From Candidatus Poseidoniales archaeon (GTDB lineage: Archaea; Thermoplasmatota; Poseidoniia; Poseidoniales; Poseidoniaceae): 64,000 nt of DNA. The notes beneath the pieces are model-generated. The model searched no databases. It had not been told where the DNA came from and saw only the letters and a list, made by a program, of their open reading frames with translations. The number at the start of each line of letters is the position of its first letter. Position 1 is the stretch's first letter. A program made the position numbers and the translations under genes. The DNA lies in assembly GCA_003602605.1 (NCBI GenBank), contig QQRW01000037.1:14718-78717 (forward strand). Direction: 5' to 3'. This document shows, one piece after another, positions 872 to 51,571 of the stretch.

Positions 872-936
872 GAGTAACAAGTTGCTGATGAACTAATCAT
901 TTGAAAGGGTTCGCTCGGAACCGTAGAATAAGAATG

Positions 937-981
937 AAAAAAAAAAGACGAAGGCAGGGGGCCCCGTTAGGAAACCCCCTG
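937..981 (-). terminator. GC hairpin followed by a T10 tract (on the minus strand), downstream of the giant adhesin gene
   Basis: Stem CAGGGGG (955-961) pairs with CCCCCTG (975-981). The plus-strand A10 run at 937-946 is T10 on the minus strand, 8 nt after the hairpin. Oligo-T tracts are the known archaeal termination signal. Confidence 0.5.
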
Positions 982-1040
982 CGATCGTGTAGCTCTCTAC
1001 CTCATGGGTAGTCATCCCATCATGGGATGCGGGAGACAAA

Positions 1041-1064
1041 GGGGAGGGGATGAATCCCCTCCCC
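1041..1064 (-). terminator. Perfect GC-rich hairpin 38 nt downstream of the adhesin stop codon
   Basis: GGGGAGGGGAT-GA-ATCCCCTCCCC is a perfect 11-nt inverted repeat read directly from the sequence. A third palindrome, CATCCCAT-C-ATGGGATG, lies at 1013-1029. Confidence 0.45.
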
Positions 1065-1101
1065 AATGCGTCCGATTTTCTCGTCACTAAAGCGATTAAA
1101 C

Positions 1102-4100
1102 TCAAGCGCTGACGTCGTAAGACAAGCCAGACCATGTTCGAAGTTGTGCACCTTGACCAGCACTAGGTGCGTAGTTCAAGGAGATGGTCACATCTTCGAG
1201 TGGTGTTCCGTCAGAGTCATGCGTGCGCACAAAGATTGTGTCACCGGTGTTGAAGGTCGAAACCTTATCATCACCTTCAGAGTTCACTTGATCCACGAAT
1301 GTAACCATGGAGTCACTGTTCTGTGGGTTGAACCCGTAAACGCCTGCAGTATCTGCTAGATTGGTTGTCTTGACTTGTGCCTCACCGTTGGCATCAACAT
1401 AGAACACACGAACTTCGACTGCTTGGGTAGCCAAGTCAGTTTCAGACGCTTGAACTGTGATTCTCCAGTGACCTTCGTCGACATCGAAGCTGTTGACATC
1501 ATCAATAGCAAAGGTGACTCGAGGTACACCCTTGACATCGGTCTCTGCGAGGCTGCTTGCCCACACATATATGACACCAGAAAGAACCACTGTGATTGCA
1601 ACCATAAGGATAGTAGCAATAACTGGGCTCACAGCCATTTCGTCGTCTTCGAGTTTGTTCTCAACAACTTCTTCTTCATCGTCAGCACGGCGGCTGGAGA
1701 AGGCAAGAGCGCTGACAAACAGACCAGTTAGACTGACGACAACGATACTTGGTGCGAACGATGCAACTGAACTTGCTCCAATGGTTCGGACGACAACCGG
1801 TAGGTTCTGTCCAGTAGCTCCAAAGGAACCAGAGCCAGATGCGTATTCGTTACACTTGCCCCAATCGTTGTTTGCTTCAGCAGTAGCAAGATCCAAAGTC
1901 GTCATTCGGTTGTTACACCAGAAACTGTCTTCGAGCATTGGTCGGCGTTCCGAGGTCTGCGATGCATTCTGTCCATATTGTCCAGGAGCGGACCAAAGAG
2001 CACCTTGGGAACCACCGTTGTTCGCACGGTGGGACTCAGGGTCATCTGATTGGAATCGCTCGCTGGATGAAACAGTGAGGTCACATGGGTTGTTCAAACA
2101 AGTTAGAACATCCATTGAAACTTCTACCTTGGTCGTGTCCTTTGTCATGAAGATGTTTTCCTCAACAGTCAACGTTGTTCCGTAATCTGGAACATTGTAG
2201 TATCGTGTGGTTTCTTCTTCTGTGTGTCCATCGGTATGGAAGGTCACTGCCAACATGTGGTCGTACGTGTATGGTCCTTCATCGCCACCAGCATCGATGT
2301 TCACTGAAACAGGAACATAGGTGCCAGTCATGATGTTGGTAATACCGTTGAAGTTCACTCCGGATGTTGTGTCAAGTGAGTAGTCTGCAACGTTCTCTGC
2401 AACACGGTCAATTGTGACATAGACCACAACATCATCTTGGCCTTGGGCGTACGGTGCCAGTTGCTCAGTGAATGCTGAGTTGAGGACAGTCGTATCGTAG
2501 TTAGGCGTGTGTGATGGTGCAGTAGCAGTATCCTTGAGAACCAAGTTGATGGCACAGAAAGTCTGGCCAGCTGGTCGTAGTTGGTGGATACCGTTGTCGT
2601 TCATGTAATCAACTTCCCAATCGTAACCGTTTGTGGTTGCGTCTGGGATCAATGTGAAGACCAAATCAGTTCCAACGATAGCCGTCGTGAAGTAGTTGGT
2701 GTACGCACACTGTGAAGTTGGTTCAACAGTCCAAGTAAGGTCTGCAGGTACATCGTGGTCGATATCGTTCATCAATGGTAGAAGGTCCCAAGTTAGATTG
2801 TCAACATTGGTGTCATCTTCAGTCATGGTAATGAATTCACCTTCACCGTTTGCACGGCTTCCAGCGTCGCTGACCAACAAGTTCTGTCCATCGACATCTT
2901 GCAAGGTAATCACAGGTGCGTCGTTCACTGGAGCGACTGAGAAGTCGACTGTGTACGGTACCGCATCGGTGTTTTCGTTGCCGTCATCAGACAGTTCAAG
3001 CGTTACTGTGCATGAACCGCCCTTTTCGTTGGAAGTGTTCTCGGTAATAATCAGCGAGTTGAGTGTGTTCACTTCAACACTAAACGCAATACAAGACGAG
3101 TCTACAGAAGCATCCCAATCGTAGACTTGACGAACAGGTGATTGCTCGTTTGCCATGTCACGGATATAAGACTTGGAAGCGTTTGAAACCTCTCCAAGAT
3201 CCTTGGTGTGTGTTCCGAATCCTTCTGCAAGAATGTTGTCAAAGTTATCGTCAGTCGAGAAGATAGGCATACATCCTGCGTCTTCAACGTTGCAGATCAC
3301 CGGGGCGTCGTTCACGTTGGTGACTTCGAAGGAGATGTTCTTCTTGTCTGTCAAACCGTTGCTGTCAGTAACTTCAAACTCATACTCGAGAGTACCGAAT
3401 TGGTCATCAAGTGGAGTAATGGTCACAGTTTGTCCGTTCTGGTTCCAATCAACAAGCACATTATCGTATGCAACAAGGTTACCAGCTGCAGAAGTCCATG
3501 TGAGATCTGCTTCGAGGTCTTGCACATCGTCAGCCATGTTGGTTAGGCTGAATGTGTAAGCGCCGGAATCTTCCGCAACAGTGATGTCTTGTAGAGAGGA
3601 TTGAATCTCTGGACAAGCACGATCCATGTTGAGTGTGATTGCAACATTGGTAGCAAGAGACAAGTCAGTTTCTGTTTCCCAATCGTATTCACAGTCTGCT
3701 TCGGTCTTGATGAGAACATCATAGTTCTTAGCAACACTCGGTGTGGTTGAACCCTTGAATGAACGGTAAACAAGCACTTCATCGTTAATTTCTCCCGTCA
3801 ACAAATCATCGTGGTTTAGTTCCACAGTGATGTATTCTGAGAAGTCTTGAAGTGTGTTCAAAGCATCAATCGTTTGGGTTGGGTGGACAGTGCTGACATC
3901 AGCGGTCGATTCACCTTGCACAATTGCAATGATATCAATTTGACTTGGGGTTCCACCAATTCGTGAGAACGGTATGGAAATTTCAGTCAATCCTGATGCG
4001 GATGCGATATCAACGCTAGCAGCGCTGAGTGAGGTTGCACCCCATCCTAGGAAACCGTAACTGTACAGGTCATAGGAAGTCTCGCTGTCTGCCCATAGCA

Positions 4101-7100
4101 CGTAGTTAGCTTGGAACGGCAATTCGTGAGATCCACCGAGGTTGTAGCCTGTGCTGCTTCCGCTGCCATCAACGCTGAGGTAGATGAGAACATCGCTTGC
4201 AGCGAGGTCTTCACCGGTAAGACCGATGTAGAGGTCATCACCTTCGATGTATGTCACGAGCATGTCGTTTGTTCCATCACCGCTCATGAGACCTGGCATT
4301 GCATAGCCAGATGGGTTGAGGGCGTTTCCACCGACCCAGTCCTCATTTGAACCATCGACGTTCATGACCTCAGGTTGGAAGGTCGTCGAAACATAGGATG
4401 CACGAGTACCGTCGGTCGACTTAATCATCATTGCAACTTCATTGGTTGGAGCAGCGTTCAAGTGGGTAGAATCCATCGAGAACAAGTTTGCTTCATCAAT
4501 TGTAGCAGATGAGTCTACGACCAACTTGTTTTCATCGATTGTGTTACCGATCGATGTAACATAGGCGTTGCTTCCTGCATCAATCTGAACCGATGAGGTC
4601 GTCCAAGTCATGTTTTCAATACTGCCTTGTGATTCAACGACTTCGAGAGTTGTCGAAGCAGTCGATGTACCTCCATCCCAACGGAATGGTGTGTTTTCGA
4701 CATACATTCCGACCAATCCGGAAGCGTTCATTGGGTAAACCCAAACATCATCACTGTCAACAACATAGAGACCGGTTCCGGTTGCTCCACCGTCGACTGC
4801 AGCGTTAATTGCTACAACAGTTGCGTCGTCAACAAAGGCACCATAATCGTCACCAGAAATTGAAGCATCACCGGTGAGGGTGAGTTCTCCACTGGTCTTT
4901 TCGACACCTGTTGCGAATCCGGAGATTGTCGTACCACTGAGGGTCAGTGAATCTCCGCTTGCATCGTCAGCGTCAATACCAACAGTTGATGCATCGCCGC
5001 TACCGGTAATCACAGAGGATATGTCGGTAACGTCACAGTTGTCGATTTCCATTGCCGTGTCAGACAATGTGATGGTGTTACGAGCTGTGTTGACACTTAC
5101 TCCATCACAGTCTTCCAGTACAAGTCCGACTGCACTTGGTGCAGTGCGTCCTGCAGAGGTGCTGATCGTATTGTCCGCAATAGTTGGCCCGTTGTAACCA
5201 GCAGCAGCTCCGCCTTCGAGCATGAATACATCGGTACCACCGTCACCGTACGAGTCTGTCAGAGCGAGTAGGTAAAGGCCTGGAGCAGTGTATGTTGCAA
5301 GAGGCGTATACTGAGTGTTACTGGCAAAGGTAGAGCTGGTACCACGTCCGAATGAATCGGTAGTTCCGTCTGGCTTGGTAATCTGGATACCAGCTTCATA
5401 GCCCCAGGAATCTGTTGCGATATTGATATCGAGCGTCTTACCAGCTGCGAGGGTTGCACTGCATGATGCGGAGTAACGGTAAGAGCTACTCGAAATGGTG
5501 CACAACGAAGTAACTGGTGCAGGAGGCGATGTGGTACTGTCGACGATAATGCCACCATCTGCATCAACGATGGTATTGTTGTCAATATCACCGTAGCCTT
5601 CCAAGGAACTGATTGCAGCGTATGCAGCGTCTCCAGCTCCGTTGATCGTGTTTCCTGTTATGCGGTAATCCAATGCGTTATCGACATAAATTCCATCGGT
5701 AACAGTGTTGATCGTGTTTCCAATAATCATTGTACCAGTGTGTCCACCGTCGTAAACTCCGATTGCTGCAACTTTGGCACCACCGTTGTTCATTACGTTA
5801 TTTGATATCAATGCGTTTTCACTCGAACCATCTCTGTAGAGCCAAATGTCTGCAATTTCACCACCATCATTGAAGATGTTGTTCGAAATTGTGATGTTGT
5901 CTACACCCACATTCGATCCGTGTCGGTTCCAATAAGGTGAACGGGTTAGTTCAACACCGACTCCACAGTCGTTGAATACGTTGTTACTAACAACTGATCC
6001 TTCGCCACCGGATAGAACCATACACATGTCTGTGTTCTGGATGGCTTGATTGAGATCTGTGTAGCCCTTGAAGTGAGTAATTGTTGAATTCGTGACAGAG
6101 AATTCTTCAATTTCCCAAAGGTATTGGGTGCTCGAGCCCCAAGTGTATCCGTTCTGTGACTCAATCTTCGCAATGTTGGAGAAGATGGTGTTGTTTGCCA
6201 CGAGTGTGGTAATAGGGGAGCCATAGTAACCGAGTTCGATACCGTACATGCCGCCGTTGTCATCGTTGACAGTGACGCCATATAGAGCAGCATCGTTCAT
6301 GTAAACTTCGCCACCATATGGGTAACTTGTGTACCAACGTTGTGTGTCATAGAAGTCCCAAGCTCCAGTTGACAGAATTGTCGAGCCGTTGAAGTTGTAA
6401 GGAGTGTTTGACTTCAGTTGGATGTATGGCACGTCCATCATGATCGTATTACCTTGTTGATTAATCGTCAAGGAACTTGCGTATGCGTATTCATTGAGTG
6501 TTCCACCGTTACCGTCGTCGTAGCTACGTGTTCCTCTTGTAAAGAATGAACCCGCACAAGGAGTCACGGTTGTGTAAGCCGCACTGGTTGAGTACCAGCA
6601 TACACGCTCAGAAATCTGAGTGGTAAGTGGTACAGTTGCGCTGTTGCCAGAGGTGTCAGTGAGGGTTACTCCTTGAGTAGCATACCGGAAGTCGGCTTTG
6701 TTGTTCGTAGAGGTTGTGTAGAAGTAGTCGATTTCTGCAACACTCATCACTTCGTATCCTGCAAGGGAAGGAACCGTCATTCCGTTACTGTCTACGACAG
6801 CGGTTACGAAGTTCAATCCTTCTGCAATACCGTTTGCGTTCGTAGTGCCTGAGCCAGCGGCAGCACCGTCGGCGTCAAGCAGAGTGACCGTTGCGCCAGA
6901 AACGGCGTTGGTATCTGCGAGCAACTCGACTTGCATTGATCGCTTGCGAGTGAACTCACCTTGACCTGTGACTTCAACTGTTGTCGAATCCACAGTTCCT
7001 TCAATGAAATCAATGTTTGATTGACTGGATATTACGAAATCCTTCGTGTTGCCCATTGTGACGTCGGTAAAGGTGAAATCACCAGTTCCGGCAGCCTCTA

Positions 7101-10100
7101 CACCAACATCGTTGGTGGAGATGGTAATACCTGAGAAGGATACATCATTATCTGTGTTGGTTCCGTACTTGAATGCAGTTCCACTGTTTTCAACTGTTCC
7201 AGACAAATCACCTGCGAGATCCTTGGTGTAGTAGATACCTGCATTGGTATTTGAATCAAAATCAATGTTCATGAAGTCCATGGAACCAGATGCTGAGTTT
7301 CCTACAAGGATTCCGTAATCTCCGCCAGTTACTGTCAATCCGTCGCTTGTTGCCGCAGTTTGCCCAGTGATTTCCATACCAGAATCGGTTGGGTTTGTGA
7401 CAGTTACGTCTTGTATGTGTCCAGCAGCGAATGAGCCACCAATGGATACACCAGTGTCTGCACCGGTAATCGAGCCGTCCTTGAAGAGCGGTGTTCCGGA
7501 TTCACGGGCGTAGGCACCAAGTAGTGCTGCGTTGTCACCCGAGCGTGCGACGATTTCCAAACGGTCTTGGTAGTTGTCTGCACGGTTGTGAAGAACGTCC
7601 ATGTACAACGAAACCTTGCTGATGTTTGAAGCAGAGATGTCGATTGTCGGCATAGTCATTCGAGCACCTTGTCCGGGACTCATGTAGTAGGTGTAAGCAC
7701 GGTCGTAACAAATGTTGTAGCTTCCTTGCATTCCTTCAGGAGGATAGAAGATTGGGTTGTACATTGCGTGGTAAGTTGTGTAGTAAGCACCCCAATAGTG
7801 GTAAGGGTAGTATGCGTAGTAACCTGTTGGTGAGACATCTTCGATGTTTTCCCAGTCGAAACCAAACTCAAGAGGCTTGGATTCATAGTAAGCAGGGAAT
7901 CCAGGGTTGGAACCTCCCCATTGTTGCCAGATCTGGTAATAATAACCAATCCGGTTTGATGGATAATTCGGTCCGTAAGCGTATCCATTGGTGTTACAAT
8001 CCAAACTTGGAACCCCACCGACAGCACCAGGCGCATAGGTTGCGTAACCAGGCGTGCCAGACTTCGGATCAGCGGCGCTGATTGGGTAGTAACCAAGGTC
8101 ATCTGCTTCAGTGATATTCCATGTGTTTCCATTATCGTCTTCCAATTCGATGTTGTATCGGTCGGTGATCATGTAGTACTTCGTGGTAGCGTAATTGTAT
8201 CTTGGGTGAGCGTTTCCACCACCATAGATACTGTTCATACCGACTTGCAAGAAATCATCACCGAGGAAGGTCGACAAGTCAATCTTGTAGGTCGTCCATC
8301 CAGTGCTTTCACCGCTGAGCAATGTGCTACGGTAAATTGTAGGAAGGGACATACCACCGTAGATATCAACACCAACGGTGTTGTCTGTCGATGTGAAGCC
8401 GTCAACCTGTGGTGCACCGTTGAAGGATTGGATACCAACTGCAGCGTTCTTGACAACGATGTTGTCAATGGATCCGCCAGATGCTTCAACCCAAAGAGCT
8501 GTTCCTGATTGGCCGGTGTTTACGATTGAAGAATCTGCGATGTTAACAGTTCCACCGTTGACTTTCACAGTTGCCATATCGTCAGAGTTTGCTGATGCAC
8601 CGAAAATCGATGCTCCATCCGTCATCTTGAGGGTAGCCCCGGAACCGATGTACAATGCAGAGTCAGTGGTAGTGTCTTGGGCGACATCACGTAGTGTTCC
8701 GCCATCAAGTTCCAGAGTTCCTGCAACAATATCGATGTGAAGTCCATATGAAGGCGAAACAGCACTAATCGCTCCGATTGCTCCTGTATCTGAAGAAACA
8801 GTTGCGACGACCTTCCCACCGTTTGTCAAAGTCAAGACCGGGCTGCTTGTTGCAGTGCTCTTGACCTTGAGCGACGAACCCTTGAGAATCATAACACAGC
8901 CATCGAGCGTTAGGTCGGCAGAGAGTGTCATTGGTGTCCCGTCAAATTCGAAGATGGTGTGGCCGCTTGCGGTTGTACCGTTCGTTGGCAATTGTGCTCC
9001 GTTGGATGGGTCTACATAAGCATCCATCCAAGCGCAGTCCATTCCTGCTTGATCGAAATCTACAGGAGCAGGTTCGAGCAAGAGGTCAATTGTACTACCA
9101 ATGGTGAATCCAGCAGTTGGATACCAAGAAGACGAAGTCATAGTTTCGTTCTGGCCTGCTGGTCCGAATGCTCGAATGTTATGGTTCGAGTAGGTATTTC
9201 CACCGCTCTCGTCACCAGTGATTACCCAAACGCTTGCAGATCCAAGATTGGATGTTGCAGTGTCGGTAATGTGACTTCCAACTTCAAAGAGTTCAGAACT
9301 CGAACTGTCCGTAACTGCGGCAGTCACTGTGTGTCCAGACTTGAAAATCTGAGTTTGCACGTTGTTGACAAGTGCAATTCGGTAAGTTCGAACTGTAGCC
9401 AATCCACCGTACCAAATTTCAGAGGATGAAGATGGGACATCGACGTCACAGTCTCCAGTTCCACCGTTAACATCAGCGCAGTCGTCACCGTTTTGTGTGA
9501 CTTCGATGAGACGAATGTTTGAGTTCGTGTCCGCTTGTGCGAGGTAGATGCTGCCGGTTCCTGCGGTCGTGGATGTCATGGTCGTTTCACCAATAGTGAC
9601 ATCGGAATATCGTGCATAAACTGCAGAGTCAAGTGCCGAGGTGTGATCAATTGTTGAGTCCGCAATAAGAACCGAGTTCTTAGCTGCAGAACATCCGTTT
9701 GAGGTAACGCGTTCAGCGGTCATGGAGTTCAGTTGAACATTCCATCCACTGCATCCAGTCACTTCGAAGTGTGCAACATCAAGGTTGTTGATGATGACAG
9801 TGTCGGAGTTTGTGGCATCACCTTCAATCTTCAAATCATCAACACTGACGTCATCAAAGGTTCCCGGTTGCAAGTTACGCATCATCATGTTTCCAGCGGT
9901 AACTGTATCGAAGACTGCATTGTCTCCGAAGGCACCCGTTGTCGATGAAGTAGTACTTCCTCCAGGGAAGAAGTTCATTGAAGCGCTTCCTACATCAACA
10001 TCGGTCATCATGATTGATCCCATTGCATCAATCGAGACAGATGCATAGTTTGTGGCATCGAAGTTGAAGAGTTCAACTTCTGCACCTGCGCCAGCATCGG

Positions 10101-13100
10101 AATTGAGTGCTGAACCGGTCTGAGCCGTAGATGCTGTAGCGGTAACGTTGGAAATGGTAACCGTTTCCAAATCAACACTAATCAAGTTCACATATGCGTT
10201 GGTGATTGTCGTGTTTTCCAAGAAGAGAGAACCACCGGTTGATCCCGCAACGTTGACGATTGCGCCGTTGTTGGCACCTCCGTCTTTGTTACAGTTCGCG
10301 ATGGTACCTTCTGTTAGAGAAGCGACGGTGTCTTCAGCGAAGTCGAAACATGAATCATCGGTTCCGTCAACACTGAATTCGGTCATCGACACAACTGTTC
10401 CTTGGCCGCTTCCGTGTACGAAAGCTGCGCCAACATCCGTGAAGGTCACGTGATCCATTGTGAAGTTTCCAACGTTAGCGTTGCTGATTGGGCTCGAGCC
10501 GTGGCGAGAACCTGCAGCGATAGCGGCGTCGGTCGTGTTCTTGAAGTCAACATAAGAGAAGGTGTGGCGGTTGTCTGTGCTTGTCGTACAAGCGCCAGTG
10601 AATGCCATGCCCTTCCAATCAGCGCCACCAATTCCTTCGAAGAGAACGTGGTCAGTGCTGTTACCGTTGATGGTCATCTTATCACAAGCGCCATCAAAGG
10701 AAATTCCTTTGCCTGCTCCAACTTGAATGACTGTACCAGGTTCGATGGTAAGGTCAGCAGAGATGCTCAAATAGTCACCAGCCGGGTTGATTCGGACTGG
10801 ACTGTCTTCAACATCCCATGTTGTATCGGATGTGATGTCGGATGTGATATCTGTGCCCTTACCTTCGAAAGGCATTGTTCGGTAGTAAACACCACAATCG
10901 ACTGCTGTGTTTTGGTAGCAGTAGTAGGTTCCGTAGTAGGACCAATACGGTGCAATCAGTCCTGCAGGTGCAGCACTGTTGGACGAGTATGGGAGTTTCG
11001 GCATGTTGCCGTACCAGGTGGTCATTGCACGAACATTTGCTGTTGAACCGCTGCTAACGAAGTGCATGTTTCCGTGTCGCTCAATGTTGATGCGGTCGTT
11101 ACTGTCTGTGAAGTTGTAATCAGTTCCGAAATAGGTGAAATTAAATCCATTTGGCATTGCAATGTTATCAGCACATTGGGAGCCATAAGTTCGGAAGTAG
11201 TAACTCGATGCACAGTAGTATCCAGATGGAGTTCCACCGCTGGTACCCATGATATCGGTTTCAATACCGTTCACTATCGGGTTCATTCCTCTGTCGAAAG
11301 ATTCCCAAGAACCATCTGTACTGTCCGTTGTAATTCGGTAGTTGTTGGTGTGTGGGTTTGCCCCGTTGATGTACGAAGTACTCGTGCTGTGGCGAATAGT
11401 CTGTCCGTGTGTTCGTGTTTGGTCCATGAATCCGACTGTCGTTGCGTCGTAAGAATTCTTACATGCATCGTCGTAGTGGTATTCAATCTCGTTCGTGACG
11501 TCGTAAAAGACGGCTTGGAACGTACAACGGAAGTTGTTGTTGGTATATTGCATATCTCTCCATTCAACAATGAACATCTTGTTAGGATCGCCGACACTGA
11601 ATGTTTCAGTGCTGGTTGTCAAGGTGTTAACGGTTGATGTGTCTTGAGATGTGTCCTCAGCATAGAGGTAGTATTCAACTGAGTCACCGCGTTCAAGGTC
11701 TTCAAGATCAGCAGACCACGTACATGCAGCCAAAGCACATTGTGCTCGAGTTGAACTGCCTTCTGGGGTCAAAAGTTCGCTGGTCCATGAACCTGTAGTA
11801 CCGTCTGTACTTGTGATTCGGTAATACAGAGTTGGTCCAACGCCAGCAGTTGTGCTGACGTTTAATCCACTCGGTGGGTCTCCACCATCAGACAAAACCA
11901 CTGAAATGGTTCGGTCCTTGCTGTGGGAATCCGAAAGTGCTGAGTGATCTGCGATTGGAGCAAAGGTGTCAGGGACTGGGGCAACGCCGCCAATCTTGTA
12001 TGTTTGCGTACCGCTTGCAGCCTGGGAACCGTAGTATCCCATTGCGTGTGCCCATCCCGACCAAACGTATGATGGAAGGGCTCGTTCGTCGGCTAGACTG
12101 CCACCGCTGAGGTAAGATCCAGCGTAGTAGTAAGCTCCTGAACATTGGTCACGGCTTGCGAATGGACTTCGGAAGAAGTGAACGAAACCGTTTGTTGTTA
12201 CGCACAATCGGTTTGCGTTGATACCTGATCCGCCAGTAGCGTTACCGAACGAAAATAGACCCATTTGTCCACCGTAGGTTTCTTGGCCTGCAGCACTCAT
12301 TGCTGAGTCTGAACCCAGAGTGATCTTGTATGCAGGAGAGTTACCATAAGCGTAACTTGCATCCATTTGGCTTCCACCTGACAATTTGCTATCGATAGAA
12401 GGTGAACTTCCGATACCAACCATTGCAAATGCATTCTTGCCGGAGTCAAACAGGTATAGCAAATTCATTCCAGGGCCTTTGTCAGCGCTGATTGTAAGGT
12501 ATCCGCCGTCGTTTGTCATGTGTTCAAAGGTGTTCGAACGTGTTGAAGATGAACCCATTCCGTTCGACCCAGAACCTGCAACAGTTGCGTGTTGGCCCAT
12601 CCAGTTGTTGTAGAAGTAGTAGTTTGGTGCGTCATAACTTGTACCAGTGAAGAAACACTGGTTGGAACCAGTTCCACAAGAAGAGACATCGAATTCAAAG
12701 TAGAATTCATCGTTGCCATCAAAGTGTGTGAATTGCCGATCAATGAGTTGACTTGCTCTTGGGCTGGAGGAACTGCTTGCGTGCACATCAGTCATGAGCA
12801 CTGTAAGTTTCTTGTCATCTCCCGCATCCTCGACAGCTGCAACGGTGAAGTTGTACGGTGTTGGGACCGTTTGTGCACCGCTCAATGCCGGATCGTATCC
12901 AACGTTAGGGTTGGAGTTGAGATCTTGGAACTTCCAGTAGTATTCAACATAGTCTCCTGCGGAGATTGTTGGAGTTGATGCTCGGAACTGACATGTAGCG
13001 TCAGTTGTTGAACATGTTCCGATGCTCGTTGCGCTTACGCTCGTGAATGAACCGTTGTTGAGAGCGTAGTTGAGCGTAGGCTTGTTGTTTGCAGTCGTGT

Positions 13101-14874
13101 CGATGTTCGAGAGGTCAGACAATGTTGTGAAGAAGGTTCGTGAACCTTCAACATATGAGGTGACATCGTGGTATGGGACGAAGTCTGAGGCAGGCGCATC
13201 AGCGTCAATTCCACCAGAGTATGTGATACTTAGGTAAGAGTTCGAACTTCCCCCGTTGGAGTGGTAAGCGCGAGTGTAACCAGTGTTACCCGGTACTTTG
13301 TATCCAATAGCAACGGTTGAACTGGTGTTCTGAGCATCGGTGATGTAACTTGCTTGAGTGCTTGTTGCACAGGTTGCGCTCGTCGAACAAATGTCAGCAG
13401 TCGTTGACGAGTAGTACACTGGAGTCACAGTATCAAAGGAATCACTGTTCCACATCGAAGCGATGAGTTTTCGTGCGTTACCGTTGTTGTACATTGTACT
13501 GGTAGACGCGTAAGCACTCGAGGCGAGAGTGTTCGAACAACCGTTGGTAGGAGCTGCCGGCATAGTCCAACTGCCGTATGGCATGCTGGAGGAGGTCGGA
13601 GAGCCACAGTCTTCCAGGACTGTTGCAGCAACTGAGTTTGTCGCAGTAGAACCGGTCTGGTAAGTCCACCTCTGGTAATGCGAAATCGATTCAACAACTG
13701 CTTGGTTAGGTAATTGGTTGGATGTGGTAAATGTAAACGAGTTGAATGGCAAGTAGTAGTTTACGTTCGCGTTCGTGCTCGACCAGGAATACTGTCCCTT
13801 TTGCAGGTAGGTGGTCGTTCGAGCCATGTAACATCGGTTTAGCACCTTGTAACAGTAACCACTGTTTACATTGGATACTTGGATGGTTGGGTCGATGGCC
13901 AGCGGGAATACGCGTTCATCGGCCATGATCCATTCCGACTCAACGAGAGTGGAGATGATAATCTGCGAATCTATGACTTGAATGAAGTATGTTGCCGTGT
14001 ATGGTTCAGCAGGATTGCCTTCTTCGACAACAACTGGAACTGGAATTTGTGCGAGTAATTTTCCGGTCTCTGTGTTTCGGATGTCAAGAGGTTCTTGAGT
14101 TTGGGTCATTTCTTCCCCAAGCATCGTTTCTCCAAGGAAAAGAGCAAATCCGGACGGAAGTTGCAGCATTTCCGAGAATCCAAACCATGCATCGGATTCT
14201 TTGAGGATTGGACGCTCATTGACGATTAGGTTCTGCTTGAGTTGGTTGCTCTGAACAGTGTAGTCGAGTGAAAATCCTTCAGCGACAGGATAGCGAACCA
14301 TGTTACCGCCTACTTGCACTTCATCGGTTGATGGAGCAGCGTCGTAGATCTCAGGTGTCGTCATCGTTTCATCAAGAGTAATCAACATAGGATTAATTCC
14401 CATGACGATTGGATCAACCGATGGATTGACTTGAATAGCAACACCGTTAGCTGTTTCAGGAGCGAAGTAGGTCGTGAATGAGTTTTCAGTCACTTCCCAA
14501 CCATTGGCAGTAGCGACTACATTGAGATCGATGTCTGCCCATTCTCCATTCTCGCCCACAAAGTGAACTGGCGAATCGTGCAGAAGCTGCACGAATTTGC
14601 CGTCCTCAAGGACGAAGGTCTTGCTCGTTTGGTCTCTCATGCCGATGAGTTCATCGGATGGTTCGTATTCGTATTCAATTCCTGTCTCTTTCGAAGTTGG
14701 CAAAGCGAGGAGGTCTTCCCCTGTTGTGTCGTTTATAGCAACAAACTCCACATCGCCTGCGTTGTTATCGACGAACCCAGCCATAGGCATGAGGGCCATC
14801 AATGCACACAACAACAGTGCTATGCCAATTCCGTTAAAGACAGATGTTTTCTTGGTATTCTTTATTCCCAACAT
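1102..14874 (-). CDS. Giant (~4590 aa) membrane-anchored mosaic surface adhesin
   Basis: A single uninterrupted ORF, with ATG at 14874 preceded by AGGTGA; the track start at 14883 is a GTG inside that SD. Elements read from the translation: N-terminal signal anchor (IGIALLLCALMALMPMAGF); Ser/Thr-rich tracts; several arrays of parallel beta-helix (PbH1-like) repeats, e.g. ISNNIFNDGG..ISNNVMNNGG..IGNTINTVTDGIYV..ITGNTINGAG (about nt 5540-5905); NIDO-like FIVEWRD..CTFQAVFYDVTNEIEYHY (about nt 11460-11580); cadherin-like VNDAPV motifs (about nt 2905-3320); a C-terminal TM anchor; then the pilin-like module listed separately. Confidence 0.85.
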   Translation of the reverse strand: MLGIKNTKKTSVFNGIGIALLLCALMALMPMAGFVDNNAGDVEFVAINDTTGEDLLALPTSKETGIEYEYEPSDELIGMRDQTSKTFVLEDGKFVQLLHDSPVHFVGENGEWADIDLNVVATANGWEVTENSFTTYFAPETANGVAIQVNPSVDPIVMGINPMLITLDETMTTPEIYDAAPSTDEVQVGGNMVRYPVAEGFSLDYTVQSNQLKQNLIVNERPILKESDAWFGFSEMLQLPSGFALFLGETMLGEEMTQTQEPLDIRNTETGKLLAQIPVPVVVEEGNPAEPYTATYFIQVIDSQIIISTLVESEWIMADERVFPLAIDPTIQVSNVNSGYCYKVLNRCYMARTTTYLQKGQYSWSSTNANVNYYLPFNSFTFTTSNQLPNQAVVESISHYQRWTYQTGSTATNSVAATVLEDCGSPTSSSMPYGSWTMPAAPTNGCSNTLASSAYASTSTMYNNGNARKLIASMWNSDSFDTVTPVYYSSTTADICSTSATCATSTQASYITDAQNTSSTVAIGYKVPGNTGYTRAYHSNGGSSNSYLSITYSGGIDADAPASDFVPYHDVTSYVEGSRTFFTTLSDLSNIDTTANNKPTLNYALNNGSFTSVSATSIGTCSTTDATCQFRASTPTISAGDYVEYYWKFQDLNSNPNVGYDPALSGAQTVPTPYNFTVAAVEDAGDDKKLTVLMTDVHASSSSSPRASQLIDRQFTHFDGNDEFYFEFDVSSCGTGSNQCFFTGTSYDAPNYYFYNNWMGQHATVAGSGSNGMGSSSTRSNTFEHMTNDGGYLTISADKGPGMNLLYLFDSGKNAFAMVGIGSSPSIDSKLSGGSQMDASYAYGNSPAYKITLGSDSAMSAAGQETYGGQMGLFSFGNATGGSGINANRLCVTTNGFVHFFRSPFASRDQCSGAYYYAGSYLSGGSLADERALPSYVWSGWAHAMGYYGSQAASGTQTYKIGGVAPVPDTFAPIADHSALSDSHSKDRTISVVLSDGGDPPSGLNVSTTAGVGPTLYYRITSTDGTTGSWTSELLTPEGSSTRAQCALAACTWSADLEDLERGDSVEYYLYAEDTSQDTSTVNTLTTSTETFSVGDPNKMFIVEWRDMQYTNNNFRCTFQAVFYDVTNEIEYHYDDACKNSYDATTVGFMDQTRTHGQTIRHSTSTSYINGANPHTNNYRITTDSTDGSWESFDRGMNPIVNGIETDIMGTSGGTPSGYYCASSYYFRTYGSQCADNIAMPNGFNFTYFGTDYNFTDSNDRINIERHGNMHFVSSGSTANVRAMTTWYGNMPKLPYSSNSAAPAGLIAPYWSYYGTYYCYQNTAVDCGVYYRTMPFEGKGTDITSDITSDTTWDVEDSPVRINPAGDYLSISADLTIEPGTVIQVGAGKGISFDGACDKMTINGNSTDHVLFEGIGGADWKGMAFTGACTTSTDNRHTFSYVDFKNTTDAAIAAGSRHGSSPISNANVGNFTMDHVTFTDVGAAFVHGSGQGTVVSMTEFSVDGTDDSCFDFAEDTVASLTEGTIANCNKDGGANNGAIVNVAGSTGGSLFLENTTITNAYVNLISVDLETVTISNVTATASTAQTGSALNSDAGAGAEVELFNFDATNYASVSIDAMGSIMMTDVDVGSASMNFFPGGSTTSSTTGAFGDNAVFDTVTAGNMMMRNLQPGTFDDVSVDDLKIEGDATNSDTVIINNLDVAHFEVTGCSGWNVQLNSMTAERVTSNGCSAAKNSVLIADSTIDHTSALDSAVYARYSDVTIGETTMTSTTAGTGSIYLAQADTNSNIRLIEVTQNGDDCADVNGGTGDCDVDVPSSSSEIWYGGLATVRTYRIALVNNVQTQIFKSGHTVTAAVTDSSSSELFEVGSHITDTATSNLGSASVWVITGDESGGNTYSNHNIRAFGPAGQNETMTSSSWYPTAGFTIGSTIDLLLEPAPVDFDQAGMDCAWMDAYVDPSNGAQLPTNGTTASGHTIFEFDGTPMTLSADLTLDGCVMILKGSSLKVKSTATSSPVLTLTNGGKVVATVSSDTGAIGAISAVSPSYGLHIDIVAGTLELDGGTLRDVAQDTTTDSALYIGSGATLKMTDGASIFGASANSDDMATVKVNGGTVNIADSSIVNTGQSGTALWVEASGGSIDNIVVKNAAVGIQSFNGAPQVDGFTSTDNTVGVDIYGGMSLPTIYRSTLLSGESTGWTTYKIDLSTFLGDDFLQVGMNSIYGGGNAHPRYNYATTKYYMITDRYNIELEDDNGNTWNITEADDLGYYPISAADPKSGTPGYATYAPGAVGGVPSLDCNTNGYAYGPNYPSNRIGYYYQIWQQWGGSNPGFPAYYESKPLEFGFDWENIEDVSPTGYYAYYPYHYWGAYYTTYHAMYNPIFYPPEGMQGSYNICYDRAYTYYMSPGQGARMTMPTIDISASNISKVSLYMDVLHNRADNYQDRLEIVARSGDNAALLGAYARESGTPLFKDGSITGADTGVSIGGSFAAGHIQDVTVTNPTDSGMEITGQTAATSDGLTVTGGDYGILVGNSASGSMDFMNIDFDSNTNAGIYYTKDLAGDLSGTVENSGTAFKYGTNTDNDVSFSGITISTNDVGVEAAGTGDFTFTDVTMGNTKDFVISSQSNIDFIEGTVDSTTVEVTGQGEFTRKRSMQVELLADTNAVSGATVTLLDADGAAAGSGTTNANGIAEGLNFVTAVVDSNGMTVPSLAGYEVMSVAEIDYFYTTSTNNKADFRYATQGVTLTDTSGNSATVPLTTQISERVCWYSTSAAYTTVTPCAGSFFTRGTRSYDDGNGGTLNEYAYASSLTINQQGNTIMMDVPYIQLKSNTPYNFNGSTILSTGAWDFYDTQRWYTSYPYGGEVYMNDAALYGVTVNDDNGGMYGIELGYYGSPITTLVANNTIFSNIAKIESQNGYTWGSSTQYLWEIEEFSVTNSTITHFKGYTDLNQAIQNTDMCMVLSGGEGSVVSNNVFNDCGVGVELTRSPYWNRHGSNVGVDNITISNNIFNDGGEIADIWLYRDGSSENALISNNVMNNGGAKVAAIGVYDGGHTGTMIIGNTINTVTDGIYVDNALDYRITGNTINGAGDAAYAAISSLEGYGDIDNNTIVDADGGIIVDSTTSPPAPVTSLCTISSSSYRYSASCSATLAAGKTLDINIATDSWGYEAGIQITKPDGTTDSFGRGTSSTFASNTQYTPLATYTAPGLYLLALTDSYGDGGTDVFMLEGGAAAGYNGPTIADNTISTSAGRTAPSAVGLVLEDCDGVSVNTARNTITLSDTAMEIDNCDVTDISSVITGSGDASTVGIDADDASGDSLTLSGTTISGFATGVEKTSGELTLTGDASISGDDYGAFVDDATVVAINAAVDGGATGTGLYVVDSDDVWVYPMNASGLVGMYVENTPFRWDGGTSTASTTLEVVESQGSIENMTWTTSSVQIDAGSNAYVTSIGNTIDENKLVVDSSATIDEANLFSMDSTHLNAAPTNEVAMMIKSTDGTRASYVSTTFQPEVMNVDGSNEDWVGGNALNPSGYAMPGLMSGDGTNDMLVTYIEGDDLYIGLTGEDLAASDVLIYLSVDGSGSSTGYNLGGSHELPFQANYVLWADSETSYDLYSYGFLGWGATSLSAASVDIASASGLTEISIPFSRIGGTPSQIDIIAIVQGESTADVSTVHPTQTIDALNTLQDFSEYITVELNHDDLLTGEINDEVLVYRSFKGSTTPSVAKNYDVLIKTEADCEYDWETETDLSLATNVAITLNMDRACPEIQSSLQDITVAEDSGAYTFSLTNMADDVQDLEADLTWTSAAGNLVAYDNVLVDWNQNGQTVTITPLDDQFGTLEYEFEVTDSNGLTDKKNISFEVTNVNDAPVICNVEDAGCMPIFSTDDNFDNILAEGFGTHTKDLGEVSNASKSYIRDMANEQSPVRQVYDWDASVDSSCIAFSVEVNTLNSLIITENTSNEKGGSCTVTLELSDDGNENTDAVPYTVDFSVAPVNDAPVITLQDVDGQNLLVSDAGSRANGEGEFITMTEDDTNVDNLTWDLLPLMNDIDHDVPADLTWTVEPTSQCAYTNYFTTAIVGTDLVFTLIPDATTNGYDWEVDYMNDNGIHQLRPAGQTFCAINLVLKDTATAPSHTPNYDTTVLNSAFTEQLAPYAQGQDDVVVYVTIDRVAENVADYSLDTTSGVNFNGITNIMTGTYVPVSVNIDAGGDEGPYTYDHMLAVTFHTDGHTEEETTRYYNVPDYGTTLTVEENIFMTKDTTKVEVSMDVLTCLNNPCDLTVSSSERFQSDDPESHRANNGGSQGALWSAPGQYGQNASQTSERRPMLEDSFWCNNRMTTLDLATAEANNDWGKCNEYASGSGSFGATGQNLPVVVRTIGASSVASFAPSIVVVSLTGLFVSALAFSSRRADDEEEVVENKLEDDEMAVSPVIATILMVAITVVLSGVIYVWASSLAETDVKGVPRVTFAIDDVNSFDVDEGHWRITVQASETDLATQAVEVRVFYVDANGEAQVKTTNLADTAGVYGFNPQNSDSMVTFVDQVNSEGDDKVSTFNTGDTIFVRTHDSDGTPLEDVTISLNYAPSAGQGAQLRTWSGLSYDVSA
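1105..1638 (-). other. In-frame archaeal type IV pilin-like module (class III signal-peptide-like helix + beta domain) at the extreme C-terminus of the giant adhesin
   Basis: An internal ATG at 1638 begins MAVSPVIATILMVAITVVLSGVIYVWASS.., followed by PRVTFAIDD..GHWRITVQASETDL..VEVRVFYVD (178 aa). This matches the remembered consensus of Pfam Pilin_N/DUF1628 and TIGR02537. It is preceded by TM anchor FAPSIVVVSLTGLFVSALAF (1699-1758), SSRR and an acidic linker (1639-1698). No stop codon separates them. Confidence 0.6.
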
Positions 14875-14923
14875 GTCATTCACCTATACGGATTGTATGC
14901 AAAGCATCCCACGCCTTGCTCCC

Positions 14924-15067: not shown

Positions 15068-15115
15068 GATTATCCAAACAATTAGCTAGAAGATTATCCA
15101 AACAATTAGCTAGAA
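15068..15115. repeat. 24-bp perfect tandem direct repeat x2 (GATTATCCAAACAATTAGCTAGAA) plus a degenerate third start (GATCAAAACAAT)
   Basis: Read directly: copy 1 is 15068-15091 and copy 2 is 15092-15115. It lies between the 1012-aa gene terminator and the adhesin promoter, about 195-240 nt upstream of ATG 14874. Confidence 0.9.
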
Positions 15116-15191
15116 GATCAAAACAATATTCGGAACTTCATGAACACTAGACCTGAAGTTCGAACGGTGTTCAAAAGAGTAAAAGGAGGCC

Positions 15192-18532: not shown

Positions 18533-21500
18533 CTACACCGCCCGTAAAGATGCGGAAGCCGGTACATTGGAAGCCTTACGTATCGGCATATATGTAGCCA
18601 AGAGAACCAAAATCCATCCGCCAATGAAGACCATGAGAATTGATTCGACTGGTAAAGTAAAACTGGCACCCTGATCCTTCCAAAACGCCGTATACAGGGC
18701 GCGATGGAATCCAATCGCTACAAGAATTCCATTGGCCATGCCAAGCACACTCACCCAGGAGACTTCAATGAAGAACGACAGGAACACCATGCTTTTTCGG
18801 TAACCTAGAGCCCTAAGTATTCCAATCGATGTGCTTCGTTCTGAAACGGAGCGCACCGTAACCACTCCGATTCCTGCAATTCCGACGATGAGTCCGAGCG
18901 CGAGATAACCTTCGAAAATCCCCAACAATGCCAGAACCAGTGACTGGAGTATCAATACTTCGTCTGAAATGACAGAAACCTGAACGCCCTTTCCGTTTAA
19001 GATGGGTGTCAATTCCGATTCCATTTCAGCTGCAGTTAGACGTACATCCCGGCTCTTGCCAGCGGGCGAGAAATCTGCGATGTTGTCGTCATTAAATTGA
19101 GTTGATGGTTGAGCATTATCGGTGACGCTAACATACATCCGAGTGAGTCTCCCATCGAATTGTTCGATCACTACATCATCGTTCATCCAAACACCTGCGG
19201 AGAACAAATATGAAGATTGTTCAAGGAATCCTGCAACTTGGACATTTCGAGTGTTTCCAGGGTTGGAAATATCAATTAGCGAAATCGAATCTCCAATTGA
19301 AAAACTTAGCGTCGAAATACCGCTGCCATCGGCAATCGATTCAAGCCCAAATGATGCATCGAGAATAACCAAATCATCGCGACTTCCAACCGTCGCCCAC
19401 ACTTCTGTTTCACTCGAACCCAATGAAGAATCCCAAAGATAAAGCGGTAATCCACCGTGTGATGAGAAGGCTTCGTCAAATCCACGAACAACATATGGCA
19501 TTCGCTCACCAGACCCGTCCTCAAGGAAGACTTCTCCTCGATGAACACGTGCCACTGAATCAATCTGAGACTCAAGATTGGATGAAAGATTCCATTCAGT
19601 TATATCCTCTGAAAGAACGATTGGACTTGAGCGTGAGCCAGTGAGCAGCAATTCATACTCGCCTTCTGCTTCTTCAACAAACGAACTTGTATAGTTATCA
19701 AATTGTTCAGCATACCCACCAAGAACAATCACGGAGAAGACCGTGATTGAGAACATACCCATGACTACAGCAGTTCGAACTGGAGTCGCAAGAGGATAAG
19801 CGAGCGAAACCGGGAGCACTGGACCCCATCTTTTGGTGAGGAATTTTGATTTACCCAACCTTCGAACAATCATAGGTGCTGCACTGGTCAGCAAAAGCAC
19901 ACCTGCAAAGACTTCGACCAATCCCAAAGCGATGAAAGAGATCTCATCAGGCTCCATACCTTTCCGTACCGGGTCAATACTTGCAAGCCCAACTGTCCAA
20001 ATCAACAGCGAGATTCCTAGCCAAGCCAGTGTATTTCGGTTTGCGTGCCTCCAAAAGCCTTGCCATAATCTATTTTTATCACGGAAGAAAACTGGTAATT
20101 CCCATGTTAAAATTGGAACAGCCGATACGATTCCAAATACTCCTGTGAGCATCCAAAGGAAGTACGACATTGAAGAATTAAAACCAAAAATCACCAACAG
20201 AGAAAGGGTGAGCAAACCTCCACCAAGTGCAAGAATTTGAATCAGAACGAGGAACATCGGTATTCCATCACTGCGGGGAACTTTACCACCCTTAAGTGCA
20301 AGAAGGATATTCAATCGTGATGTCCAAAGGGCGGAGAACCACAGTGTTGTCAAAGCCAAAAGGAATCCCCACACTGCGCCTGAAAACAAAGAATTCCATT
20401 CCCATGCGAAACTGAATTGGTTCGAACCAACTGACGCAAACATGTTCTTGAAGCCAATGCTGATGAACCACGCCAAAGCAATCCCAACCAAACTTCCAAC
20501 TGCGCTGGCGAGTGCTGATAGAAGAACACCTTCTTGCACAGCGAGCGCTCTCGCATCGGATTGAGATACACCGAGTGCACGCATGGTTCCGAGTTCTGCT
20601 CGACGTGATTCTGCGAGCATCATTACAATGGTCAATACGAGGAGAATACCTGCAACAATCGTAAACGTTCCGAACACCAAGAACATGGCAGCTAAAACCC
20701 CCGATGACTCCTCAGCAATCGCTGCCGCTTCCACCTTAACTGCCCGAATATCGAGGTTTGCGCCGGTTGAGTTTGCATAATGATCGAGCCATTGAATGAT
20801 GTTCTCCGAGGATTCGTTCAAACTCCCGTTAAGGGAGAATACGACGAGAGAACGTTCATCCTCGCCACCAGAAGCAAGCATTTCACCGTCGTCGAGTGAA
20901 ACAAGGCCAAGGACAACTGAATCTAGTTCAGAAAGAGTCTCAAATCCAGCGATGTCAGCATACGAGCCGGCATAGGTGAGTTGGTGGGCTGTATCATCGC
21001 CAAATGCGTATGGAATGAGCCCCTTCACCCAAAACTCACTTTCATTCGCCTCAAGAGATAACGCCGTTAATCTTTGACTGAGTAAAACCTCACCCGGTTC
21101 AACCATTAAAGGCGAATTGCCGCCACCAAAGGCGAGATACAACTGAGGGAGTACGCCAAAACCACCTGCAGTAGAGACCACAGGGATGCGTAATGAGAGA
21201 ACTTTGTCATTCGTGGAGTCCCATCGGATGAGTCCCTCTGAAACGGAGCACCAGTGTTCAGACGGAGAAAAAAGGGTCAATGATGCCTCGCCGTTGCACA
21301 TTGGATGTAAATCAGCATCTGCACCAGGAAGGGTAACTTCAGGCCATGATGAATTCGAACCGATTTCAGTAAATTGAATGGTTGAAATCGAAGAAGTGTA
21401 TCGAGAGGATGAAAGCAAACCTTCGACTTCAAGAAACAAAGAATCGTCGCTAAGAAGATGAGTTGAAAGAATCGTTGAGGGAAGATCAATATCGAGCACG

Positions 21501-47874: not shown

Positions 47875-47885
47875 TCGACATCACC

Positions 47886-49607: not shown

Positions 49608-49616
49608 AACACCTCA

Positions 49617-50856: not shown

Positions 50857-50865
50857 AGTAACACC

Positions 50866-51570: not shown

Positions 51571-51571
51571 A

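Follow-up and report, generated by a model that had tools for sequence, protein, structure and literature searches.

A conserved archaeal type IV pilin module at the C-terminus of a giant surface protein in marine Poseidoniaceae

Haloarchaeal adhesion pilins of the Pilin_N family (H. volcanii PilA1-6; 8fj5, 8gi2, 9myg) combine a …[DE][DE]xA/VSPVI(G/A)…ILMVAITV… region with a helix and beta-sandwich head, and their motif stands at the extreme N-terminus behind a 10-15-aa leader. In H. volcanii, several pilins of the one organism share a nearly identical hydrophobic helix. A related architecture is found in the ArlF/ArlG (FlaF/FlaG) stator of the archaellum, where an archaellin/pilin-like N-terminal helix anchors a beta-sandwich that contacts a cell-envelope protein. 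Bacterial modular or minor pilins and tip adhesins (S. sanguinis PilB/PilC, PilY1-type) couple a bulky adhesive module to a filament via a pilin-like subunit that shares the N-terminal helix of the major pilin; the large module is either C-terminal to the pilin or a separate protein. The class III signal peptide and PibD also serve some non-filament surface proteins, whose signal is N-terminal with no membrane helix upstream of it. To our knowledge, class III signal peptides are regarded as exclusively N-terminal, and prediction tools and annotation pipelines assume as much.

Marine Group II (MG-II) archaea are among the most abundant archaea of the surface ocean and are uncultured, and we know of essentially nothing established about their cell envelope and attachment biology. 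Genomic surveys of MG-II discuss the archaellum operon only. The window analyzed here, a 64,000-nucleotide stretch from a Candidatus Poseidoniales archaeon, encodes a giant surface protein on the minus strand (1102..14883). The last 265 residues of this protein are best explained as a membrane hairpin, of which the second helix and the domain that follows make up a complete archaeal type IV pilin. The gene has 4,593 codons when counted from GTG 14883, and comparison with an ortholog (P0121) suggests that ATG 14874 is the likely true start. The product is rich in Thr, Ser, Gly and Asp, with a pI of 4.05. No stop interrupts its frame across the 23-aa anchor (SFAPS…), the RR pair, the 20-aa acidic loop and the pilin module of 176 aa, whose beta-rich domain reaches up to the stop codon at 1102-1104. 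A first-pass annotation of the window had described this layout, and its coordinates and reading frame hold.

A hydropathy scan of the 4,593 residues detects just three hydrophobic segments: residues 12-40, which form an N-terminal signal or anchor (14764..14850, minus strand), residues 4371-4398 (TM1) and residues 4414-4446 (the pilin helix). The topology proposed earlier, with the ectodomain outside, TM1 running inward, the loop in the cytoplasm and the pilin helix leading back out to the final domain, is self-consistent with these three segments. A Lys-rich KNTKK precedes the N-terminal segment, and the same arrangement occurs in orthologs P0121, P0126 and P0153. Pilin_N (residues 4417-4461) is the sole domain above cut-off in a Pfam scan of the full 4,593 aa, which returned no other significant domain and so lends no support to the name adhesin used in the first-pass annotation. 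The last confidently folded part of the ectodomain is a beta-sandwich, here termed module X (MLAVTFHTDGH…VEVSMDVLTC..CD; 2098..2388, minus strand; AlphaFold2 pLDDT 80-90), after which comes a linker with Cys and a terminal LPxVV. A fold search with a 432-aa model gave only generic Ig/FN3-like matches for module X. Terminator-like hairpins (1064-1041 and 982-954) and a T-run lie 3' of the stop codon (936..1064, minus strand), and no terminator-like element is present between TM1 and the pilin module. Downstream of the giant, the same gene order (either HAD hydrolase or PolD small subunit with CinA) is seen again even among distant relatives. Antisense genes overlapping the tail were considered and rejected, as the stop-free antisense stretches range from 55 to 363 codons between orthologs. 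Two large neighboring proteins end in a hydrophobic anchor and charged tail (..AFILSRGGEGDEGKDWDY and ..IAYRMKW, each then stopping), as had been noted.

TM1 is a 23-aa stop-transfer anchor (SFAPSIVVVSLTGLFVSALAFSS; 1693..1761, minus strand; hydropathy maximum 2.03) that includes the hydrophobic stretch FAPSIVVVSLTGLFVSALAF at nt 1758-1699. SSRR and the acidic linker follow at nt 1698-1639. The predicted cytoplasmic loop (RRADDEEEVVENKLEDDEMA; 1633..1692, minus strand) is acidic, with RR at its start and [DE][DN][DE]-x-Ala at its end. TM1 is well conserved and has a length of exactly 23 aa in 74/74 loci. Across 74 loci the loop measures 18-22 aa and contains a mean of 9.4 acidic residues; Ala occupies position -1 in every one, position -2 varies freely, and acidic residues fill -3 to -5. 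The succession of SFAPS, TM1 and RR has the tripartite look of an archaeosortase-like signal, but this candidate was rejected because it is not C-terminal and because no NCBIfam CTERM model (PGF-CTERM and relatives) matches the last 432 aa at E <= 1.

Beyond ATG 1638 the frame continues with AVSPVIATILMVAITVVLSGVIYVWASS and the beta-rich domain. Family HMMs, a predicted helix and beta-sandwich fold, and fold matches identify the tail as a bona fide pilin module of the archaeal type IV family. It matches both Pilin_N (PF07790; E 3.9e-9, 37.7 bits, cut-off 25.2) and TIGR02537 (E 3.2e-9, 36.1 bits, cut-off 20) above the curated cut-offs, which confirms the family proposed in the first-pass annotation, and the Pilin_N match also passes in the context of the full 4,593-aa protein (31.1 bits). 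A profile of the tail matches the solved archaeal pilin filaments 8fj5 (E 9e-12), 8gi2 (2e-7) and 9myg (9e-7). The N-terminal helix (VSPVIATILMVAITVVLSGVIYVWASSLAE; 1543..1632, minus strand; model residues 92-119) has a hydropathy maximum of 2.54, and the head (1105..1542, minus strand) is a beta-sandwich of ~145 aa modeled with AlphaFold2 pLDDT above 90. Together they are predicted to adopt the lollipop fold of an N-terminal helix with a beta-rich globular head. Foldseek ranks two archaellins, 5z1l and 8rh5, and a pilin of C. divulgatum, 8rey, as the top matches of the head (E 1e-4 to 1e-3). The soluble domain of FlaF (4zbh, 4p94) also matches the head in the fold search; the tail has no Pfam match to Arch_flagellin (PF01917), which places it outside the ArlF/ArlG stator family.

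Alignment to solved pilins predicts a class III signal-peptidase site between Ala (1635-1633) and Val (1632-1630) of the minus strand (1630..1635). The tail has the small residue (Gly/Ala) at -1 and the hydrophobic helix of ~20-30 aa expected of such substrates, and the mature N-termini of 8rey and 3j1r align with its Val+1. At the same position, the haloarchaeal pilins 8fj5 and 8gi2 read NDDSA-VSPVIG and DEERA-VSPVIG, respectively. The acidic DDxA/VSPVI pattern is thus common to the tail and to haloarchaeal pilins with solved filaments, and this cleavage-site signature supports processing. The predicted products are an upstream chain ending in …DDEMA and a mature pilin beginning with VSPVIATILMVAITVVLSGVIYVWASSLAETDVK. 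Archaeal pilin-like proteins present this motif at their extreme N-terminus, after a leader that is short and usually basic. Its first residue in the giant is 4416 of 4593, after TM1, RR and the acidic loop, and most loci have no Lys/Arg at -2. Archaellins of the window likewise have Ala at -1 and lack Lys/Arg at -2, so that the peptidase serving this organism must accept such sites. The amino acids of the pilin helix are invariant while its synonymous sites are saturated, although the invariance appears inflated, since related loci were retrieved with helix patterns; a search with the head alone offsets this in part, and the helix is retained in the relatives so retrieved. Codon-level comparison indicates that selection on the helix acts at the protein level.

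Nearly the same helix is found in a free-standing pilin that is very abundant in marine metagenomes (at least 120 contigs). This protein has a 10-aa leader (MKNENRNEEA/VSPVIATILMVAITVVLAGVLYVWASSLA) and a conserved, strong GGAGGAC ribosome-binding site. The tail and the free-standing pilin share Ala(-1) and agree at 28/30 of the first mature residues (Ala(-1)/VSPVIATILMVAITVVL.GV.YVWASSLA), whereas their heads are unrelated. Ser/Ala at +18 and Ile/Leu at +21 are the two diagnostic differences, and each family keeps its own state, which points to purifying selection acting on each independently and not to gene conversion. All 65 of the 65 complete NRNEEA-leader proteins in a metagenome scan carry the free-pilin head rather than the tail-type head. 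The free-standing gene adjoins Sua5-Map and glycosyltransferase genes, a neighborhood that differs from that of the giant locus. Both the free pilin and the giant are annotated from Poseidonia/Poseidoniaceae MAGs, and there was no overlap between the record names compared for presence in the same genome. A viral origin of the free pilin was rejected, with 0 matches in viral contigs.

By a narrow balance of probability, the tail is a true substrate of the class III signal-peptide type, cleaved on the cytoplasmic side of the membrane, and it serves as a minor or anchor pilin encoded in cis with the giant. In this mechanism, the ~4,350-aa ectodomain is exported behind the N-terminal signal, TM1 (SFAPS…, then RR) stops transfer, and the 18-22-aa acidic loop remains cytoplasmic. 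The pilin helix then re-inserts N-in/C-out, which places the head outside, beside the last ectodomain module. These steps are directly supported; those that follow are inferred. A class III signal peptidase of the ArlK/PibD type would cut after the invariant Ala at the cytoplasmic face, making everything upstream of the site a giant ‘leader’ and yielding a TM1-anchored giant and a 176-aa mature pilin. Through its near-identical mature N-terminal helix, the tail would dock on or enter the machinery or fiber of the free pilin. Even after cleavage the giant would remain membrane-bound through TM1, and coupling to a fiber would need a non-covalent contact; the giant may stay attached by contact of the head with the last ectodomain module. 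A further proposal, which is unlikely, is that the giant is in effect the leader of a minor pilin that is built into, primes or terminates the free-pilin pilus, with the head bound to module X. ArlI and ArlJ are present in the window as part of the archaellum operon, which is located ~31 kb from the tail and has an ArlF/G-like gene of its own at 50353-50856. A T2SSF gene lies ~9 kb upstream of a distant ortholog of the giant.

The pilin could have been joined to the giant by an assembly or sequencing artefact, or by the very recent loss of a stop between adjacent genes, as one reading in the first-pass annotation held, and type IV pilin entries of 170-200 aa that look ‘stand-alone’ are indeed numerous in databases. 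Those that were checked as candidate stand-alone orthologs (P0071/L081, P0099/L082, P0087/L092 and P0095/L091) proved to be gene calls that start past a gap in the scaffold or at the edge of a contig. A tail-type head does follow a short free-pilin leader in contigs L089 and L090, whose homology to the fused loci begins exactly at the Ala(-1) codon and whose 3' flank is that of a giant locus. These hybrids of a free-pilin 5' part and a giant-locus 3' part occur only in low-coverage (1.4-1.6x) ENA assemblies with adapter remnants; they were rejected as true stand-alone orthologs and are read as chimeras, or else as rare recombinants, with the junction inside the shared helix. Against an artefact, the frame through the tail is open as one ORF, not two, in 80/80 independently assembled loci from Poseidoniaceae species representatives, and in 78 of these it stays open as far as the locus start. 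Variation in loop length (18-22 aa) is always in frame, and the fusion is kept in relatives with heads just 34-37% identical. Judged from these comparisons, the fusion is ancient and selected, which overturns the reading as a recent event and leaves it a negligible probability. Alternatively, one ORF may give two products, the tail being made also or only from an internal start in the loop, or from an internal promoter, as an ordinary short-leader prepilin. The internal ATG noted earlier is indeed present at 1638, and an in-frame ATG occurs in 57/75 distinct loops; 40 of the ATG sites lie at -7, and 13, with that of this window among them, at -2. Its position is not conserved, however, as Met(-2) is confined to those 13 of 75 loop sequences. 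A Red Sea study lists an unspecified DUF1628 gene among the most active MG-II transcription start sites (PMC5069720), which would fit such a start if that gene were the tail. On the other hand, 18/75 loops lack an ATG and 12/75 lack any ATG, GTG or TTG. No SD-like motif precedes the -2 ATG in 13/13 cases, as had been observed for ATG 1638, and about half of the -7 ATGs are preceded by a weak GGAG/GAGG only, as expected from Glu codons, whereas the free pilin has its invariant GGAGGAC. Given also that no AT-rich promoter-like element lies upstream of ATG 1638, separate expression of the tail is highly improbable.

The more serious challenge to processing is that the hairpin is an uncleaved anchor, in which a pilin captured long ago supplies only a second membrane helix and the head is an extracellular domain packed on the last module. 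The fixed length and conservation of TM1 fit a co-evolved uncleaved hairpin, the match of the head to the FlaF soluble domain is consistent with it, and the N-terminal helices of ArlF/ArlG are described as staying uncut. Moreover, no peptidase gene is found nearby: a Pfam scan of the window ORFs of at least 150 aa, which comprise all plausible genes, gave no match to Peptidase_A24, in agreement with the initial observation for the window, and a search with the GxGD[..][KR] motif found nothing credible in 1.38 Mb of related loci and flanks. Further evidence comes from an exhaustive search with the head alone, in which every occurrence was either C-terminal in a giant (2,785-5,559 aa) or within one of five small paralogs (P0122, P0131, P0135, P0136 and P0138). 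The paralogs lack the entire two-helix hairpin, join module X straight to the head and carry a separate C-terminal anchor. Because their heads are covalently linked to the ectodomain, neither cleavage nor filament assembly is needed for head function, and it is this that keeps the second-anchor reading of the first-pass annotation alive. What an uncleaved hairpin leaves unexplained is an invariant Ala(-1) beside a hypervariable -2, acidic residues at -3 to -5 like those of processed haloarchaeal pilins, and agreement at 28/30 mature residues with a canonical short-leader pilin across the whole group. An uncleaved anchor is therefore somewhat doubtful. As for the processed polyprotein, the other reading considered at the outset, the sequence evidence favors it with respect to cleavage and the link to a pilus system, because the free-standing pilin has the same cleavage site and 28/30 of the mature residues and because Ala(-1) is invariant.

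The processed-pilin reading places the giant close to several known systems and apart from each. The tail shares its family HMMs, motif and helix-plus-sandwich design with haloarchaeal pilins, but its motif follows an ectodomain, a membrane helix and an acidic loop. It differs from the free-standing pilin, which has its own ribosome-binding site, short leader, head and neighborhood. ArlF and ArlG are separate small Arch_flagellin proteins inside the archaellum operon, whereas the tail is of the Pilin_N type with a canonical cleavage site. In the giant, in contrast to the bacterial adhesive pilins, the large module is N-terminal, beyond the hairpin and the predicted cleavage site. The proposed route resembles that of the non-filament PibD substrates, which differ in having an N-terminal signal and no upstream membrane helix. 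A literature search, including papers on MG-II and on archaeal surface filaments, found no description of a pilin fused behind a giant protein, in agreement with the first-pass annotation.

In databases these giants are split or carry wrong labels: a 180-aa ‘type IV pilin’ is one example, and proteins of 2,172-3,946 aa filed under ‘FlaG/FlaF family flagellin’ are another. On the processed-pilin reading, the locus would tie the largest conserved surface protein of MG-II to a pilus system overlooked in genomic surveys. If the conserved internal site is used, the peptidase would act on a polytopic precursor, and one gene could yield a giant surface protein and a pilin in a 1:1 ratio. On the unlikely proposal that the tail also joins the free-pilin pilus, no earlier class III signal peptide would have been internal and C-terminal, and cargo would be loaded onto a type IV filament by a new route. 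A surface protein of ~4,400 residues would thereby be coupled physically to a type IV filament in the dominant planktonic archaea of the ocean.

The giant surface protein encoded by minus-strand ORF 1102..14883 (4,593 codons) carries a C-terminal type IV pilin module, its tail (…SFAPSIVVVSLTGLFVSALAFSSRRADDEEEVVENKLEDDEMAVSPVIATILMVAITVVLSGVIYVWASSLAETDVKGVPRVTF…SYDVSA, then stop). The last ectodomain module and a linker ending LPxVV are followed by TM1, an acidic loop, the pilin helix, and a head domain. Pfam Pilin_N (E 3.9e-9, 37.7 bits versus a cut-off of 25.2) and TIGR02537 (E 3.2e-9) both match the last 178 residues. A Pfam scan of the giant gave no significant domain besides Pilin_N, and the name "adhesin" is an assumption. 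Hydrophobic segments number only three in the entire protein (an N-terminal signal, TM1, and the pilin helix), so the predicted topology (outside, TM1, cytoplasmic loop, helix, outside) is self-consistent. Re-translation of the window reproduces the coordinates that the first-pass annotation had given for the ORF and its pilin tail, and the pilin-family assignment proposed there holds as well. The stop codon is directly followed on the minus strand (window 936-1064) by terminator-like elements, namely a pair of strong, GC-rich hairpins at 1064-1041 and 982-954 plus a run of T; a small ORF overlapping them (893..1135) is probably spurious. The intergenic region upstream of the gene contains a perfect 24-nt tandem repeat (window 15068-15118, 2.1 copies, GATTATCCAAACAATTAGCTAGAA).

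In sequence and predicted fold, the tail is a true pilin, as had been proposed. Its profile matches solved archaeal pilin filaments, including 8fj5 (E 9e-12), Natrinema PilA2 8gi2 (E 2e-7), and 9myg. In the alignment, 8fj5 and 8gi2 (…NDDSA-VSPVIG and …DEERA-VSPVIG) share the pre-cleavage pattern of the tail, and mature 8rey and 3j1r each begin with a residue that aligns to its Val+1 (numbered from the predicted class III cleavage site Ala|Val). An AlphaFold2 model of the tail region has two helices and a beta-sandwich predicted with confidence (pLDDT 78.6 overall, head >90), for which the best PDB fold matches are the archaellins 5z1l, 8rh5, 7ofq, and 9eq7 and the Cuniculiplasma pilin 8rey. 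FlaF, too, matches in fold through its soluble domain.

Sequence conservation shows that the giant-pilin fusion is old and maintained by selection. Screening one genome per species yielded at least 532 related loci, the best 80 of which were analysed. All 80 are free of stops across the loop and TM1, and in 78 of the 80 the frame remains open to where the locus begins, as much as 3,425 aa further upstream. Among 74 loci compared, TM1 is always 23 aa long and the loop spans 18-22 aa, so loop indels are always in frame. The loop starts with RR, has a mean of 9.4 acidic residues, and ends [DE][DN][DE]-x-Ala. Ala occupies -1 in 74/74 loci, whereas -2 varies freely (A 33, M 13, T 12, S 5, and others); the Met/ATG at -2 noticed in the window is therefore not conserved, Met being present in 13 of 74-75 loops. 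No internal start is conserved: 18 of 75 distinct loops lack any ATG, 12 of 75 lack ATG, GTG, and TTG, and the -2 ATG is not preceded by an SD-like motif in the related loci, nor, as the first reading had indicated, in the window. Every synonymous alternative occurs among the codons of the pilin helix, yet its amino acids do not vary, an invariance that is partly built in because the loci had been retrieved with helix peptides.

As an unbiased control, the head domain alone was used as query against 1.84 billion representative proteins. All 16 helix-bearing representatives examined, including every full-length carrier, are giants or giant fragments. The giants (4,595, 5,559, 4,572, 4,640, 4,539, 4,372, 3,639, and 2,785 aa) each have the head at the extreme C-terminus, behind TM1, RR, the acidic loop, and A|VSPV(I/V)ATIL(M/L)VA(I/V)T. 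This layout is kept even where head identity is 34-37%. With the frame open in 80/80 loci, such conservation refutes the proposal of a recent fusion or a stop codon lost in assembly. Downstream gene order is likewise shared even with distant relatives (mostly a HAD hydrolase, otherwise PolD small subunit and CinA). Database entries of 170-230 aa named "type IV pilin" come from gene calls whose start follows a scaffold gap or coincides with the end of a contig. One distant, higher-GC relative has an orthologous 4,372-aa giant with cupredoxin-family (Copper-bind) matches on a 3.0-Mb contig (L088, 1-1028 and 10001-23119), where a T2SSF platform gene and two small genes with hydrophobic N-termini lie ~9 kb upstream.

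Some matches carry the leader M(K/Q/N)NENRNEEA in place of the loop. A metagenome scan for NRNEEAVSPVI recovered at least 120 contigs, with no occurrence in viral contigs. These encode a canonical free-standing pilin (loci L093-L172 and L213-L227, e.g. L146:1583-2095) with a 10-aa leader, a mature protein of ~155-175 aa, an invariant ribosome-binding site (GGAGGAC), and a full-length Pilin_N match (E 9e-12). Its gene invariably has Sua5-Map on one side and glycosyltransferase genes on the other. With 2,911 matches and clusters of up to 360 member sequences, this very abundant family is annotated from Poseidonia and belongs to marine Poseidonia/Poseidoniaceae. The MG-II genome papers surveyed do not mention it. 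Its head is unrelated to that of the tail. Of its first 30 mature residues, 28 are identical to those of the tail. The two differences, Ala/Ser at +18 and Leu/Ile at +21, do not vary within either family, which speaks for separate selection on each helix rather than gene conversion. Separately, the head of the free-standing pilin occurs without the helix as the C-terminal domain of secreted, lipoprotein-like proteins (P0218 and P0327, 281-300 aa; the P0327 signal ends LILTGC), and pilin heads seem to have been shuffled among surface proteins in this lineage.

Hybrid sequences join the two families: contigs L089 (1-1370) and L090 (1-1243) and cluster members P0334, P0336, P0341, and P0343. From 5' to 3' they combine the upstream gene, 5' UTR, and leader of the free pilin, a tail-type head, and the 3' flank of the giant locus. 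Homology to fused loci starts at the Ala(-1) codon, with the switch inside the shared helix. They are limited to ENA assemblies with adapter remnants and ~1.5x coverage. They were rejected as orthologs with a stop codon and are treated as chimeras, made in vitro or during assembly, or else as rare recombinants deleting or rearranging the giant gene, joined within the shared helix.

Close homologs belong to Candidatus Poseidoniaceae/Poseidonia (Marine Group IIa). In the window, a minus-strand archaellum operon (46075-54779) encodes ArlJ (46075-47874), ArlI (47889-49607), ArlH (49620-50387), an ArlF/G-like protein (50353-50856), and two archaellins (52479-53132 and 53132-53680). The archaellin leaders end …NVA|AIGIG and …KIA|AIGIG, so that -1 is Ala and -2 is neither Lys nor Arg. 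The window further encodes housekeeping functions, additional large secreted proteins, and an FtsX/ABC pair. Between giant surface-protein genes, a protein of 1,536 aa whose C-terminal domain is an FtsX permease (18533-23835, minus strand) adjoins an ABC ATPase; the pair resembles a MacB-like transporter, here with a very large portion outside the cytoplasm.

A class III signal peptidase would probably cut the tail after the Ala, since -1 is invariant beside a variable -2, residues -3 to -5 are acidic as in processed haloarchaeal pilins, and the archaellins of the window share the pattern of Ala(-1) with a non-basic -2. A Pfam scan found no Peptidase_A24 gene in the window. Archaellins need ArlK/PibD, and an archaellated lineage is therefore expected to encode a class III signal peptidase. 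The main rival holds that TM1, loop, and helix form a hairpin serving as an uncleaved membrane anchor. Conservation of TM1 supports such an anchor, as does the existence of paralogs without the hairpin, but the cleavage-site signature and the near-identity of the helix to that of a canonical pilin weigh against it.

Five small paralogs (P0122, P0131, P0135, P0136, and P0138, from loci L086 and L087; complete ones 416-707 aa) have the last ectodomain module and a pilin-type head but lack exactly TM1, loop, and helix: LPxVV and a short acidic linker run directly into …PRFTFE…. A new C-terminal anchor ends four of the five sequences and is GLPSIG-TM-RR in several. P0131 retains the Cys-rich stretch of the window's clade. 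Sequence comparison suggests that these paralogs arose by hairpin deletion, and in them head and module probably form one extracellular unit.

Neither an internal class III signal nor a pilin placed behind a giant protein turned up in full-text literature searches, and both are absent from the MG-II papers surveyed, a Thermoplasmatales cell-surface study, and a 2026 preprint on archaeal type IV filament systems. The class III signal/pilin module itself is rated as known, its position and context in the giant as undescribed. IMG names proteins of 2,172-3,946 aa in the giant family "FlaG/FlaF family flagellin (archaellin)" and NCBI labels tail fragments "type IV pilin", annotations that hide the fused architecture. 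Extra flaI, flaJ, and tadC genes are mentioned for MGIIa MAGs (PMC6864105), and in a Red Sea study a DUF1628 gene, which could be either of the two pilin genes, ranks seventh in activity among MG-II transcription start sites (PMC5069720). Speculatively, the mature tail might enter, or dock on, a pilus made of the free-standing pilin, and might hold the giant there through contact of its head with the last ectodomain module.
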